DNA of 64,000 bases from a virus (IMGVR_UViG_3300032087_005453:32001-96000); one strand, 5' to 3'. Counted from the first letter of the stretch, positions 8,319 to 51,360 are shown. A program made the numbers and translations. The notes: generated by a model not told the origin, from the sequence alone.

Positions 8319-8659
8319 TTTCTACCCTGCATATTTGAGAACCTATATAAATCCATGCTTTTTTTATTAAATTTCACAAAACTTCCGGTATCCTTACATC
8401 TGGTTGAATTCGTAAAAAGATTGAAGTATATTTCAGTTCTTTCTTTGGTGGTTTTAATAGTCGAGAAGCTTTTAAGTGCAAGCGTCTCATCTACGTTATA
8501 GATGTGCCTGTCTAATTCGCTACGTAAAAGTGCCTCAAAATTACAAGGATGTTCAACCTTTACTGATGGAAGGTCACTATCTTTTTGCATAAATATCAAA
8601 AACGCACCCTCATCCCAACCGTTGTGACTCAAGATTCTCAACACCAGATAAACATCCAT
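8315..8659 (-). CDS. Hypothetical protein (114 aa)
   Basis: Translationally coupled to the GT4 gene; AGGAGG RBS. Confidence 0.7.
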   Translation of the reverse strand: MDVYLVLRILSHNGWDEGAFLIFMQKDSDLPSVKVEHPCNFEALLRSELDRHIYNVDETLALKSFSTIKTTKERTEIYFNLFTNSTRCKDTGSFVKFNKKSMDLYRFSNMQGRK

Positions 8660-9747
8660 TATACCAACCCTCCTAAATACTGTATTTTATCATGAAGTAT
8701 CGATGTTGAATTTTCCCATGTAAATTTACTGGCGGATTCTACACCTGCGGAGTTGACCTCTAATTCACCTTCCTGCCTTCTCTTGTGTACAGAACGCATG
8801 TATTCAACCATCTGGTCTACTTCATCAGAACCAATCTTTCTCCAATCAAATTGACCATGAAACCATTTTCCATCGTTAGCTGGTTCGTATCCACTATTCA
8901 TTTCAACAAGCATAGAGTTTTCTGAATCACAGAACTCAGTATGGGCAGTTGCATTTGTAATAATTAAATGTCTGCCACATCCTAGTAGTTCTAATGCTTC
9001 TAAATTCCAACCTTCAGCTCTTGACGGAAAAATACCGCAATGTATTTGTGACATAATATTATACACCATATTTTGCGTTTTTTGTCGTCCAACAAAGACT
9101 ATTTTGTCTCCAAGTTTAGTACCTTTGAAGCGGTGAATCCATGCATCAGTTTCATCCTGATTCAAGAAAAAATTATGAGGCATCATAATAAGTGCAACAT
9201 CATCAGTTTTTTCAAATGCTTTATTGAATATGGCAGGTAGGATGTCGTGCCCCTTCCTAACCTCAAACTTACCAAAATTACCAAATACTGTAGTTCCACC
9301 TTGTGGTAAAGGACAAGGCTTGAATATTTCTGGATCATAACCAAGTGGAACTACATGGGTACGTCCAATTTTATCTGGAATATTGGATTCAATAACCCCT
9401 TTTGCCCATTCTGATGACACAAACAAATAATCTGGATTATTAAGGGAATGAAGTTCTACATCTCTAAACTTCTCAAGCTCAAAGATAGGCATTCCTATTC
9501 TGAGACCTCTTCCGTAAAAAGGATTGAGATCATGTTGGTGCCATATACGTAAGCATGGTGCGGTATAAGAAAAGTCCCAACGAGACATAGCCTTCTCTAG
9601 GTGTGGGGCTAAGTTCTCGTCGGGACTATTTTGTCCAATCGGAATGTGTCTAAGGTCATATCCTAATTTAGAAAGTTCCTTAATGAAGTAAGAAGACACA
9701 TACCCGTAAGATGTTACGTTGATTGGGCAATTTATGTTTAAGATCAT
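8659..9747 (-). CDS. GT-B (GT4-like) glycosyltransferase
   Basis: VVPLGYDPEIF, GKFEVRKGHDIL, and FPSRAEGWNLEALE (EX7E motif). Confidence 0.9.
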   Translation of the reverse strand: MILNINCPINVTSYGYVSSYFIKELSKLGYDLRHIPIGQNSPDENLAPHLEKAMSRWDFSYTAPCLRIWHQHDLNPFYGRGLRIGMPIFELEKFRDVELHSLNNPDYLFVSSEWAKGVIESNIPDKIGRTHVVPLGYDPEIFKPCPLPQGGTTVFGNFGKFEVRKGHDILPAIFNKAFEKTDDVALIMMPHNFFLNQDETDAWIHRFKGTKLGDKIVFVGRQKTQNMVYNIMSQIHCGIFPSRAEGWNLEALELLGCGRHLIITNATAHTEFCDSENSMLVEMNSGYEPANDGKWFHGQFDWRKIGSDEVDQMVEYMRSVHKRRQEGELEVNSAGVESASKFTWENSTSILHDKIQYLGGLV

Positions 9748-9923
9748 TCATCTTTTTTCTTTTTTATAGGTTCAATCTTAGGTTCCATTTGCCTTTGGAT
9801 TTCAGCTACTTCTCTTTCAAGTTTAGCTTGTTCTCTAATGAGTTTCCGCTTTTTGAGAAGTTTCTGTTTTACCCTAGCTTCTCTAGCTTTTTGCTTTTGA
9901 AACTTCTTTCTTTCTTTAGACAT
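9744..9923 (-). CDS. Small Lys/Glu/Arg-rich coiled-coil protein (59 aa, not in ORF track)
   Basis: MSKERKKFQKQKAREARVKQKLLKKRKLIREQAKLEREVAEIQRQMEPKIEPIKKKKDE; GGAG RBS; ATGA overlap with the GT4 gene; fills the gap exactly. Confidence 0.75.
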   Translation of the reverse strand: MSKERKKFQKQKAREARVKQKLLKKRKLIREQAKLEREVAEIQRQMEPKIEPIKKKKDE

Positions 9924-10152
9924 CTTCTCCCCCGGATTGTTCCTTTACATAAAGTACTTGATCAGCCTTTACCAATATTGTCTCTGAAAAACCGTATTCA
10001 CCACACGAACGAATTTCAATACAGTTATCAGTTAGACCACCAGAAAAGACCTCATAAAACTGGTCTAATAAATCCCTAGCTTCGTCTGGAGACAGATATA
10101 CCGATATTTCACGATTATCCTTTAGAGCGATAGAAATTTTATTATACTTCAT
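9916..10152 (-). CDS. Hypothetical protein (78 aa)
   Basis: Tightly packed downstream of ssb. Confidence 0.7.
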   Translation of the reverse strand: MKYNKISIALKDNREISVYLSPDEARDLLDQFYEVFSGGLTDNCIEIRSCGEYGFSETILVKADQVLYVKEQSGGEDV

Positions 10153-10153
10153 T

Positions 10154-49414: not shown

Positions 49415-49971
49415 AGTACCTCGCATATATAACTTGGGTATTTTTCTATGCTAATACCTACCATTTTGATTTTACCAGCTTGAATATGTTCATTAACAGC
49501 TCTTATTACACCGGCTTTCCAAACCTGACAATTGGTAACATAGTCATGACCCATTATAAAACCGCCCTTTTTAACTTTATACAAAGCGTTCTCTAATTCT
49601 ATGGAGACAGACTTGTAGTCATGACATGCGTCTATGTATATCCAGTCTAGGTAGTCATTCTCTAGACCATATAAAAAGTTGCCACCATATTCTCTGTGCA
49701 ACTCTACTGTTCCTTGCTCTATCTCTCTTTTGAATAACCTGCCCACCAACTCCCTGTGGTCATCCTCCCAGAGACACGGGTACTCAATTAGGCAAGCATT
49801 GGGGTGTCTTTCTCTCCATATGTCACATAGATGTAGTTTTTTTGGCTTAGTTATATGATACAAAGATATTGCATTGACACCCTTACAGACTCCAATCTCA
49901 GCACCTATACCATCTTTAGGTACGTCTAGGTACATTTCATTTGATGTTTCGTATTCTTTTATTTTATCCAT
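49411..49971 (-). CDS. Class I SAM-dependent methyltransferase (Methyltransf_24-like)
   Basis: GAEIGVCKG, LDWIYIDACHDY, KVKKGGFIMGHDY, GVIRAVNE. Confidence 0.88.
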   Translation of the reverse strand: MDKIKEYETSNEMYLDVPKDGIGAEIGVCKGVNAISLYHITKPKKLHLCDIWRERHPNACLIEYPCLWEDDHRELVGRLFKREIEQGTVELHREYGGNFLYGLENDYLDWIYIDACHDYKSVSIELENALYKVKKGGFIMGHDYVTNCQVWKAGVIRAVNEHIQAGKIKMVGISIEKYPSYICEVL

Positions 49972-50980
49972 ATCGTTCCTCCGGGCAGATTACAAGTTTG
50001 CCACTTTTCCTTCTAATTTTAATGGCCTCTGATATTTCGCTCTCTATGAAAAAATGGGCGTTAGACTCAGAAAATATTCTAGCTTTAAATGTAGAAACTT
50101 CTTCTACATGATTCTTGTTTCTTTCTTCTTCCATTTCAGTCGGAAACATTTTTAAAAAACCATATTTTATATTGTATCTATCTAACCATTCTTCTGTTAT
50201 ATCTCTATATTTTTCTAACCTACCTGTTACGATTCCCGCACAATGTGTTTTGGGTATTCTGTGAGGAAATGGTTTTACGTTTTTAATAAAGTCAATATAT
50301 CTTGATTCGTCTTCACACACGTCTATAGGAACATTCGGAGAGAATATACCATCAAAATCCAATAATGCTTTCTCTATATAAGTACAGTTAAAAAGATTCC
50401 ATTCCAGCAAGTGTGGTGGAGACAATTCTCTAGCAAAAAAATCTGGTTTGTGCTCACAGTCTGGTTTAAAATAAACTGTAGCAAAATAAACATCTTCTAG
50501 TAGTCTAGATTTAATGTTCTTCATTGCTGTACCAGCATACATCGTATCATCCACGACCAAGATTCTACCCTCTCTGTCGTCAAAGTCTTTCATTCTGATC
50601 CCACCAAAACCGGTAGCACCAGATAAAATCTTGGCATTATTATTTTCATCTAGGTAGTAGAGCGGTAGATTTAACCACATGGCAATCATACTTGCTGGTA
50701 ACATACCCGAACGAGGCACGCCAAGAACACCTCTTAATTTAAGATTATGTACTTGTGGTAATAATAAATTTTTACAGTCCTCTATCATCTTTGCATTGGT
50801 AATATATTCTCCGGCAAGATAAGATTGTCTGCGTTCGTGTTTCTTGTCGCAATCTATCTTGTACTTTTTCCTTTCTTCAGCGGTAGCATTTTGACACCAT
50901 TGCCAATTAGGAGGACTTGCTGTCATCTCTTGGTTATAGTATTTACAATATCCATGTTTTTCACAAATGCATTTTTCCAT
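49964..50980 (-). CDS. Cys domain + phosphoribosyltransferase + HAD phosphatase fusion
   Basis: CICEKHGYC N-terminus; GVPRSGMLPA and ILVVDDTMYAGTAM (PRPP loop); LLDFDG, IVTGRLE, FFIESE (HAD motifs). Confidence 0.85.
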   Translation of the reverse strand: MEKCICEKHGYCKYYNQEMTASPPNWQWCQNATAEERKKYKIDCDKKHERRQSYLAGEYITNAKMIEDCKNLLLPQVHNLKLRGVLGVPRSGMLPASMIAMWLNLPLYYLDENNNAKILSGATGFGGIRMKDFDDREGRILVVDDTMYAGTAMKNIKSRLLEDVYFATVYFKPDCEHKPDFFARELSPPHLLEWNLFNCTYIEKALLDFDGIFSPNVPIDVCEDESRYIDFIKNVKPFPHRIPKTHCAGIVTGRLEKYRDITEEWLDRYNIKYGFLKMFPTEMEEERNKNHVEEVSTFKARIFSESNAHFFIESEISEAIKIRRKSGKLVICPEERYG

Positions 50981-50982
50981 AA

Positions 50983-51360
50983 TTAATCCACAAATAAAAT
51001 AGAGGGGGCAGTTAGCCTACCAATTAAGTGTGGGGCTGTCTCAGGACTACCAGAAGATCCGCCCCCGGAATAAAGATCAGCGGGTGAGTCATCACCAAGT
51101 CCTCCCGTATCATATTCATATTTAATAGTCAGCTCATTGGCTTCCTCGTCAACACTGGTAACAATATAGGTATATGTAGACAATATAGTACTTTCGGTTC
51201 CTGCACCAGCTTCGCGTGACTCTACAATTACCTTATCGCCAATCCTAGCGTCGTATATGCTATCTATATAAGTTACAGTATAACTAGGTCCAGAACCAGT
51301 AACAGAGTCCACCGACACAGAAGATATGACTGTATAATATGGCTGAAAAGAGTTAGACAT
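50983..51360 (-). CDS. Hypothetical fibre-associated protein (125 aa)
   Basis: Coupled to the fibre gene; S/T/G-rich. Confidence 0.65.
   Translation of the reverse strand: MSNSFQPYYTVISSVSVDSVTGSGPSYTVTYIDSIYDARIGDKVIVESREAGAGTESTILSTYTYIVTSVDEEANELTIKYEYDTGGLGDDSPADLYSGGGSSGSPETAPHLIGRLTAPSILFVD

Follow-up and report, generated by a model that had tools for sequence, protein, structure and literature searches.

The genome of an uncultured marine, siphovirus-like tailed phage carries an extensive set of genes for the synthesis, transfer and tailoring of sugars. The window analysed here comprises 64,000 nucleotides, i.e., bases 32001-96000 of the linear 107,436-bp IMG/VR viral contig IMGVR_UViG_3300032087_005453 (G000), which is 68% complete (CheckV). 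Within the window lie a sugar pathway (island A, 11.6-20.9 kb) and, among the structural genes, a trio of tailoring enzymes (island B, 48.9-51.0 kb); two core glycosyltransferase (GT) genes, one of them within the window, and a kinase/HAD/nucleotidyltransferase set are located away from the islands. We tentatively favour the reading that these genes constitute a cytoplasmic glycan line of the phage, most likely decorating the fibres or the capsid of the virion late in infection. A phage-made target in the cytoplasm is preferred because the enzymes have no transmembrane (TM) segments, because island B resides among structural genes, because the sugar cassette seems to be largely viral, and because a core GT is related to a chlorovirus enzyme. 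A hydropathy scan revealed no TM segment in any of the GTs or sugar enzymes. The same scan detected no multi-pass membrane protein, neither flippase-like nor polymerase-like, in the 107-kb contig at its given completeness.

Island A opens with a small cupin which recurs among related viral cassettes. Two GT2-family GTs follow, with a protein of 311 amino acids (aa) between them. Neither this protein nor any of four homologues has a Pfam match; its neighbours in a protein language model atlas score 0.97-0.98, one such cluster being 68% GT2, and it is syntenic between both GT2s in contigs L206, L215 and L216. Next is a miniature E1 pair dependent on thiamine pyrophosphate (TPP). In relatives E1 beta is always positioned directly after E1 alpha; the Transket_pyr match of E1 beta, 25.9 bits, is just below the Pfam cut-off of 27. 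The RmlC-like cupin matches the NCBIfam model rmlC below cut-off (9.2e-19), and the NCBIfam matches of the radical S-adenosylmethionine (SAM) enzyme are B12 radical SAM methylases, each below its cut-off. We read the DegT-family enzyme as a ColD/RfbH-type 3-dehydratase because a His occupies the position of the Schiff-base Lys (YSYYIAH aligned with FSFFGNK of the perosamine synthase 3bn1). Its best NCBIfam model is RfbH (7.7e-52, below cut-off). The subsequent short-chain dehydrogenase/reductase (SDR) matches galE and the dTDP-glucose dehydratase family, again below the NCBIfam cut-offs. At the end of the island stands a 309-aa protein which has no Pfam match, nor do its homologues; atlas scores of 0.92-0.93 connect it to clusters with DUF4422 in 15-35% of their members.

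This cassette is not a singular arrangement. It recurs, whole or largely, in 12 viral contigs. The operon order is GT2, 311-aa protein, GT2, RmlC-like protein, E1 alpha, E1 beta, radical SAM enzyme, DegT with the His replacement, SDR, GHMP kinase, small HAD protein and a cytidylyltransferase-like nucleotidyltransferase. In G000 the kinase, the HAD protein and the nucleotidyltransferase, together with a PNP_UDP-family gene, are found at genome position 3.7-6.0 kb, about 38 kb away from island A. The sugar system is therefore truly distributed. Among NCBIfam models, the heptose-7-phosphate kinase HddA fits the kinase best (2.3e-35), and no classical NTP_transferase of the RmlA/RfbF type is present in five genomes. 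The pathway thus looks self-contained from a sugar phosphate, hexose or heptose, to a modified nucleoside diphosphate (NDP)-sugar. The miniature E1 alpha has 1852 metagenome homologues. A profile search of about 185,000 GTDB species genomes returned one match; a single-sequence search of the species genomes returned none. The lone bacterial match is a metagenome-assembled genome of Candidatus Albibeggiatoa (contig NZ_JAOXRS010000066.1, L123, 6814-20135). Besides a miniature E1 alpha/beta pair this locus has two genes for B12 radical SAM enzymes, one for an HddA-like kinase and one for DegT; encoded there too are a GT61 and two TPR proteins, one of 913 aa, the other weakly matching GTs. By this distribution the miniature E1 cassette appears essentially, or at least largely, viral.

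Island B consists of a fusion protein, a methyltransferase and a sulfotransferase-fold protein. The fusion joins an N-terminal Cys module, a type I phosphoribosyltransferase (PRT, approximately residues 60-200, i.e., about 140 aa) and a HAD phosphatase (approximately residues 203-338). The loop for phosphoribosyl pyrophosphate (PRPP), VVDDTMYAGT, and the HAD motif DFDG are readable in the sequence. The latter is part of LLDFDGIF (residues 205-212), in which D208, D210 and G211 are invariant across 47 sequences; the DxD nucleophile is intact. Residues 248-280 match phrog_415, annotated as polynucleotide kinase, in PHROG. An AlphaFold2 model of the fusion has a pLDDT of 86.6, and its best Foldseek matches are all type I purine PRTs (2.5e-8). 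Sequence comparison with the PDB at E up to 1 yielded nucleobase PRTs as the only matches. The fusion has 423 homologues and is missing from 7 of 11 relatives searched.

PAPS-dependent carbohydrate sulfotransferases possess a 5'-phosphosulfate loop of the PKTGG type with a catalytic Lys. The 180-aa protein of island B has the family-invariant motifs HIPRTGG and F..R....R..S, the latter 3'-phosphate-like, and its AlphaFold2 model a pLDDT of 89.5. In a VIA comparison the model aligned with heparan sulfate 2-O-sulfotransferase at Z 8.4, a middling value, with a root-mean-square deviation of 3.8-4.0 over 153-157 of the 180 residues. The top VIA rows are nearly all sulfotransferases. Foldseek produced no match of this model under E 1e-3.

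The genes for the 1617-aa fibre protein, a S/G/T-rich 125-aa protein, the PRT-HAD fusion, the methyltransferase and the sulfotransferase are co-oriented and overlap or abut, and no strong hairpin exists between them. In L019 and in G005/L048, too, a homologue of the 125-aa protein immediately precedes PRT-HAD. The gene slot that follows the head-proximal fibre is variable. It is occupied in G001 by PRT-HAD, a sulfotransferase, a protein of 285 aa and a cytidylyltransferase-like protein; in L019 by PRT-HAD, a weak GT8-like protein, a Sulfotransfer_2 protein and a Gmd-like SDR; in G005 by PRT-HAD, a methyltransferase and WavE; and in G002 by a DUF285 protein instead. Because the neighbours in the fibre slot of G000, G001, L019 and G005 are sugar-related, PRT-HAD is placed in a carbohydrate and not in a nucleotide context. 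Island B is further tied to the end of island A since PRT-HAD, the 309-aa protein and the adjacent 155-aa protein share the N-terminal module C-x-C-x4-5-[FY]-C-x-[RY]-[HY]. A 337-aa protein of G004 matches PRT-HAD at this module only. The module could act as a tag which these proteins share for docking or for binding a metal. With respect to transcription, a strong terminator-like hairpin is located in the gap between the capsid and fibre genes; transcription of fibre and trio would then depend on read-through or on a separate promoter. A 9-mer search across 25 upstream regions disclosed no common promoter motif.

The original prediction had listed at least four GTs, a GT4 and three of the GT-A type, plus a DUF4422-like protein. 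Pfam bears out the GT4 and both GT2s, whereas the third GT-A and the DUF4422-like protein, having no Pfam match, are leads. The families of the nucleotide-sugar pathway it placed at 14.5-19.8 kb are recovered by Pfam, Transket_pyr being below cut-off, and the PRT-HAD, methyltransferase and sulfotransferase trio is indeed located directly behind the 1617-aa fibre gene, inside the structural region.

When every G000 protein was compared by tblastn with five whole relatives, a clear division between core and accessory genes emerged. All five retain two GT4-type genes and a GDP-mannose 4,6-dehydratase (Gmd; NCBIfam gmd 5.9e-112), an SDR encoded near the terminase (52-67% identity). Both core GT4-type genes are in the replication module. 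The orthologues of the GT4 in the window are 40-69% identical; the second, GT4-like protein (547 aa) is encoded outside of the window beside DNA polymerase III alpha genes, and its best solved relative is the GT B736L of chlorovirus NY-2A (9e-10). Sugar island and trio belong to the variable, accessory part of the genome, and islands A and B vary independently. G002 has E1 alpha/beta, the His-type DegT, SDR and a GT2 and lacks the radical SAM enzyme, the RmlC-like protein and the trio. In G001 the RmlC-like protein and the radical SAM enzyme occur together with PRT-HAD and the sulfotransferase; the E1 pair and the methyltransferase are missing. G005 has PRT-HAD and the methyltransferase. Two relatives rated complete, G008 (with terminal repeats) and G004, are devoid of island and trio and carry GT2, GT1 and SDR genes of their own.

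How might these enzymes cooperate? Island A and the distant kinase/HAD/nucleotidyltransferase set would activate a sugar phosphate, and a 4-keto-6-deoxy NDP-sugar would undergo 3-deoxygenation by the His-type DegT. The miniature E1 pair may then carry out a TPP-dependent two-carbon branching, to be followed by epimerisation, reduction and B12 radical SAM methylation. A TPP enzyme is likewise adjacent in two-carbon branched-sugar pathways. Two or three GT-A enzymes would transfer the resulting sugars. Island B would contribute a PRPP-derived ribofuranose via the type I PRT, with removal of the 5'-phosphate by HAD, and in addition O-methyl and sulfate groups. The putative acceptor is a surface protein of the virion, fibre or capsid, which would be glycosylated in the cytoplasm late in infection. 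The chemistry so outlined is a prediction, and its steps would converge on a single joint product.

The fibre and tail proteins were claimed to be enriched in Ser-Gly (SG) and to serve as acceptors. In the five fibre and distal-tail proteins pooled, SG occurs 109 times versus 54.1 in shuffles (z 8.4), and the reverse dipeptide GS 58 times versus 54.2. The excess is strongest in the non-repetitive 1952-aa protein with 37 SG versus 14.0 in shuffles (z 6.7) and 14 GS; ratios to expectation in the 590-, 1258- and 561-aa distal tail proteins are 1.92, 1.43 and 2.40. Enrichment thus stands for fibre and distal-tail proteins and fails for the tape measure protein (ratio 0.91, no excess); the neck proteins are too small for a judgement. 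NG and DG are not enriched in the fibre proteins, and a general beta-turn cause was rejected for this reason. Internal repeats account for part of the SG in the 1617-aa fibre, not for that in the non-repetitive 1952-aa protein. The non-structural proteins have SG ratios of 1.1-1.2. As for outgroups, the T5 fibres pooled have 1.26, T4 gp34 about 1.7 (12 versus 7.1 expected) and gp37 below 1.

The proposed connection of these sites with the cassette does not hold up. Pooled ratios are 2.01 in G000 and 1.98 in G001, and G008 (1.93) and G004 (2.13), without island and trio, are equally SG-rich at about 1.9-2.1 times expectation, the very outcome that the original prediction had named as speaking against it. 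The co-occurrence check of cassette against SG fails as well with the G002 fibre, which has a ratio of 2.43 and no trio behind it. What survives of the one distributed glycan system of the original prediction is synthesis and tailoring over several loci (methyl, sulfo, and probably PRPP-dependent ribosyl transfer); the SG acceptors do not. The "branched" nature of the glycan and its use as bait for Planctomycetota are speculation. Between G000 and G001, 11 of 37 SG sites are conserved versus about 4 expected, and a family-wide use of SG is conceivable, the core GTs being present in all relatives. The surroundings of the sites are depleted of charged residues; V/I prevail at -3, P/A at -1, V/I/C at +2 and F/W/L at +3.

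A number of observations weigh against a glycan on the virion. The acceptor is not identifiable from sequence. Ser/Thr-rich C-terminal tails are absent on the major capsid protein (56347-57357) and on the tail-tube candidates. As G008, G004 and G002 show, islands and SG excess do not vary together, and the hydrophobic flanks of SG suggest a structural turn of the strand-turn-strand type. The PRT domain resembles a nucleobase PRT, unlike the known glycan PRT fold, and the sulfotransferase family has an Arg at the position of the catalytic Lys of characterised enzymes. Position is weak evidence, as unrelated inserted genes are common in variable regions beside fibre genes. Finally, with the contig incomplete, membrane components could lie in the missing part.

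The foremost alternative, somewhat less probable yet serious, is remodelling of the host envelope. Auxiliary genes would feed NDP-sugars and peripheral GTs into a lipid-linked lipopolysaccharide (LPS), capsule or S-layer pathway of the host; the gain could be a block of superinfection, or that progeny is kept from sticking to debris. The enzyme families are those typical of bacterial surface-glycan loci (WavE, RfbH-like, HddA-like, Gmd), peripheral GTs can act on undecaprenyl-pyrophosphate intermediates without a TM segment, and the islands are accessory and hypervariable as in O-antigen loci. As the literature records, Gmd, GTs and sugar genes akin to them turn up repeatedly as auxiliary genes of marine phages. 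Yet there is no candidate for a flippase, polymerase, ligase, GtrA/GtrC-like protein or initiating phosphoglycosyl transferase and no multi-TM protein in 107 kb, and island B is tightly packed among the structural genes. Moreover, miniature E1 was encountered in 1852 metagenome or viral proteins as opposed to a single one of about 185,000 species genomes, which argues that hosts generally do not make this sugar.

Would the genes form one system at all? PRT-HAD might serve the metabolism of nucleotides or nucleosides, or a small molecule might be the product of the trio. The sugar island would then be a separate insertion, and proximity to fibre genes would reflect no more than insertion into plastic regions. 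The PRT is indeed closest to purine/xanthine PRTs, its homologues are annotated likewise, it is missing from most relatives searched (7/11), and islands A and B vary independently. We consider this unlikely, since carbohydrate and not nucleotide enzymes flank PRT-HAD in four independent lineages and since the Cys module joins it to the proteins at the end of island A. Less likely still is DNA hypermodification, in which the core GT-B enzymes, possibly with the islands, would glycosylate bases of the phage DNA against restriction. Viral GTs placing diverse glycans on DNA have been reported (cited in PMC12619734). In G000 both core GT4-type genes are in the replication module, the 547-aa one next to the polymerase, and the genome also encodes a dCMP deaminase and a T4-gp1-like dNMP kinase. 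What makes DNA glycosylation improbable is the absence of a hydroxymethylase of the thymidylate synthase family (PF00303) in G000, G001, G004, G005 and G008; in this search controls matched in 10 of 14 genomes, and three of the four relatives are at least 90% complete. In the search for the Tet/JBP family the control genomes gave no match. Further to this point, we know of no precedent on DNA for a multi-step 3,6-dideoxy branched sugar combined with several GT-A enzymes and sulfation.

A bolder variant of the virion glycan we hold to be quite improbable. The type I PRT, HAD and Cys module would represent a new, virus-specific class of PRPP-dependent ribofuranosyltransferases which, with the methyltransferase and the sulfotransferase, builds a sulfated, methylated fibre glycan; the direction-specific, family-wide SG excess would mark the acceptor sites of the core GT4s, resulting in a proteoglycan-like coat on an abundant phage of the sea.

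Virion glycosylation by phages has precedents. In mycobacteriophages phage-encoded GTs glycosylate the virion, the reported role being a glycan shield on capsid and tail (PMC11256854, PMC12619734) and the reported sites the C-termini of capsid and tail-tube subunits (PMC12619734). Like the Che8 type and the chloroviruses, G000 possesses soluble GTs of its own, one core GT being related to NY-2A B736L, and here nucleotide-sugar enzymes as well. Unlike the Che8 type, its capsid and tube proteins have no C-terminal acceptor tails. Unlike both, its gene set is far larger (rare-sugar pathway, PRT-HAD, methyltransferase, sulfotransferase) and partly inside the structural module. We found no description of a sulfated phage glycan in the literature.

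In its logic PRT-HAD is closest to bacterial ribofuranosyltransferases of glycans that depend on PRPP. Cj1432 of Campylobacter jejuni and CrpP-CriT of Haemophilus influenzae Bcs3 transfer ribose-5-phosphate, which is subsequently dephosphorylated; in Cj1432 the PRT stands at the C-terminus, preceded by HAD in the middle (PMC12096443). In common with these, the phage protein has a PRPP-binding transferase fused to a HAD phosphatase and is encoded among glycan genes. In contrast, the phage order is PRT then HAD, preceded by an extra Cys module, and its PRT is of the roughly 140-aa type I near purine PRTs as opposed to the glycan PRT fold of 340-440 aa. The solved Cj1432 and Bcs3 enzymes are not among the matches listed for PRT-HAD, which by itself does not set a relationship aside. 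Because of the small type I PRT and the reversed domain order we do not file it in their family.

The colitose and 3,6-dideoxyhexose pathways with ColD/RfbH share with the phage the DegT having His for the Schiff-base Lys, and the core Gmd supplies the type of substrate ColD uses. Unlike in these pathways and in TPP-dependent branched-sugar enzymes, the phage E1 alpha and beta are miniature (208 and 174 aa) with neither E2 nor E3, and the cassette appears essentially viral. Cyanophages and other marine phages with LPS or sugar clusters and seroconverting GtrABC phages likewise carry Gmd, GTs and sugar-modifying genes. Unlike in GtrABC phages, which modify the O-antigen with a membrane flippase and a membrane-bound serotype-specific transferase, no membrane component of the GtrA/GtrC type was found in G000, and one island is packed behind the fibre gene.

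All whole relatives examined have GTs and Gmd plus hypervariable sugar-tailoring islands beside fibre genes. Should the particle carry the product, marine virions would have in their glycan coats a trait both widespread and diversifying, with a bearing on adsorption, grazing, aggregation and lectin- or charge-based detection. Should it be on the host, the phage would be an example, large and uncommonly self-contained, of a virus that reprogrammes the surface of its host. In either case three candidate enzymes appear to be mostly or wholly viral: a miniature E1 alpha/beta branching enzyme, an Arg-type miniature sulfotransferase and the type I PRT-HAD fusion.

Table. Features of the phage genome discussed in the text; positions count from the first nucleotide of the window.
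Feature	Position	Strand	Evidence or remark
GT4-type glycosyltransferase, core gene	8659-9747	-	Pfam Glyco_trans_1_4 6.6e-10
Small cupin, first plus-strand gene of island A	11613-11963	+	Pfam MannoseP_isomer 5.2e-6, Lyx_isomer 6.5e-6
GT2 glycosyltransferase	12053-12745	+	Pfam Glycos_transf_2 3.9e-10
311-aa protein, possible third GT-A (lead only)	12742-13677	+	language-model neighbours
GT2 glycosyltransferase	13674-14513	+	Pfam Glycos_transf_2 2.6e-13
Miniature TPP-dependent E1 alpha, 208 aa	14525-15151	+	Pfam E1_dh 7.7e-17
Miniature E1 beta / transketolase pyrimidine-binding, 174 aa	15148-15672	+	Pfam Transket_pyr 9e-6
RmlC-like cupin (sugar 3,5-epimerase or ketoisomerase family)	15683-16183	+	Pfam dTDP_sugar_isom 1.1e-23
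B12-binding radical SAM enzyme (C-methyltransferase class)	16180-17661	+	Pfam B12-binding 3.3e-9, Radical_SAM 5.4e-16
DegT-family enzyme, ColD/RfbH-type sugar 3-dehydratase	17676-18812	+	Pfam DegT 8.1e-76
SDR sugar epimerase, reductase or dehydratase	18809-19765	+	Pfam Epimerase 1.9e-30
309-aa protein, N-terminal Cys module, DUF4422-like (lead only)	19997-20926	+	N-terminus CECIFSDFCERH
155-aa protein, same Cys module, DUF6171 C-terminus	20910-21377	-	Pfam DUF6171 5.8e-8; N-terminus CECPLAGYCNRH
Distal fibre or tail protein, 1952 aa, non-repetitive, Cys-rich	21454-27312	-	strongest SG excess
Three distal tail proteins (590, 1258, 561 aa)	27331-34572	-	downstream of tape measure gene
Tape measure protein	34582-40080		PhageMin_Tail 7.4e-25
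Sulfotransferase-fold protein, 180 aa	48884-49426	-	PHROG 3347 6.4e-13
Class I SAM methyltransferase (Methyltransf_24)	49411-49971	-	Pfam 7e-14
Cys module + type I PRT + HAD phosphatase fusion	49964-50980	-	Pfam Pribosyltran 2.7e-5 (below cut-off)
S/G/T-rich protein, 125 aa	50983-51360	-	precedes PRT-HAD in three lineages
Fibre protein, 1617 aa, about 7 tandem repeats of about 80 aa	51360-56213	-	translation; just after major capsid gene
Strong terminator-like hairpin, capsid-fibre gap	56293-56325	-	15-pair stem, 7 GC pairs, T run
Terminase large subunit	61531-63537	-	
Gmd, just outside the window	65044-66183 (window-equivalent)	-	about 1.5 kb upstream of terminase large-subunit gene

The phage has no cultured relative, as a 20-kb megablast query was without a match among cultured phages and the terminase shares no more than 27% identity with proteins of Bacillus and Microcystis phages. 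IMG/VR contains more than 597 relatives of its major capsid protein at 67-89% identity, and contigs of 100-175 kb encode many of these; on account of this number the siphovirus-like family, a very large one, appears to be widespread in marine samples. On the minus strand the order of genes is terminase, portal, scaffold-like protein, cement protein, capsid, 1617-aa fibre and enzyme trio, continued by neck and tail genes, the tape measure protein of 1832 aa, the distal tail proteins and the 1952-aa fibre. The sole hint at a host is a DUF1501 sulfatase-like gene (genome 2109-3386, plus strand, outside of the window; Pfam 2.8e-56) which is also present in G001 and G004. Its homologues, about 36% identical, are mostly from Planctomycetota and Verrucomicrobiota; the matches reflect lineages in which this family is expanded and do not identify the host. 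A sulfatase-like gene and a sulfotransferase are thus encoded within one genome.

The fibre and tail proteins merit a few additional remarks. The N-terminal anchor of the 1617-aa fibre is kept in relatives and the remainder is variable. Similarly, G001 and G002 retain no more than about the first 61 residues of a 464-aa FG-GAP repeat protein (45961-47355, minus strand), which gives the impression of an exchangeable module for receptor binding or decoration on a conserved anchor. Cys makes up 4.5% of the residues of the 1952-aa protein, and 78% of these Cys are kept in the G001 orthologue. A disulfide or redox helper for this Cys-rich virion protein may be the product of 2517-3257 (minus strand), which has a TM segment at its N-terminus and a thioredoxin domain (Pfam 6.3e-8). 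A further protein of 186 aa (5746-6306, minus strand) combines an N-terminal TM segment with a PAS domain (PAS_9 1.5e-8), i.e., it is membrane-anchored and sensor-like.

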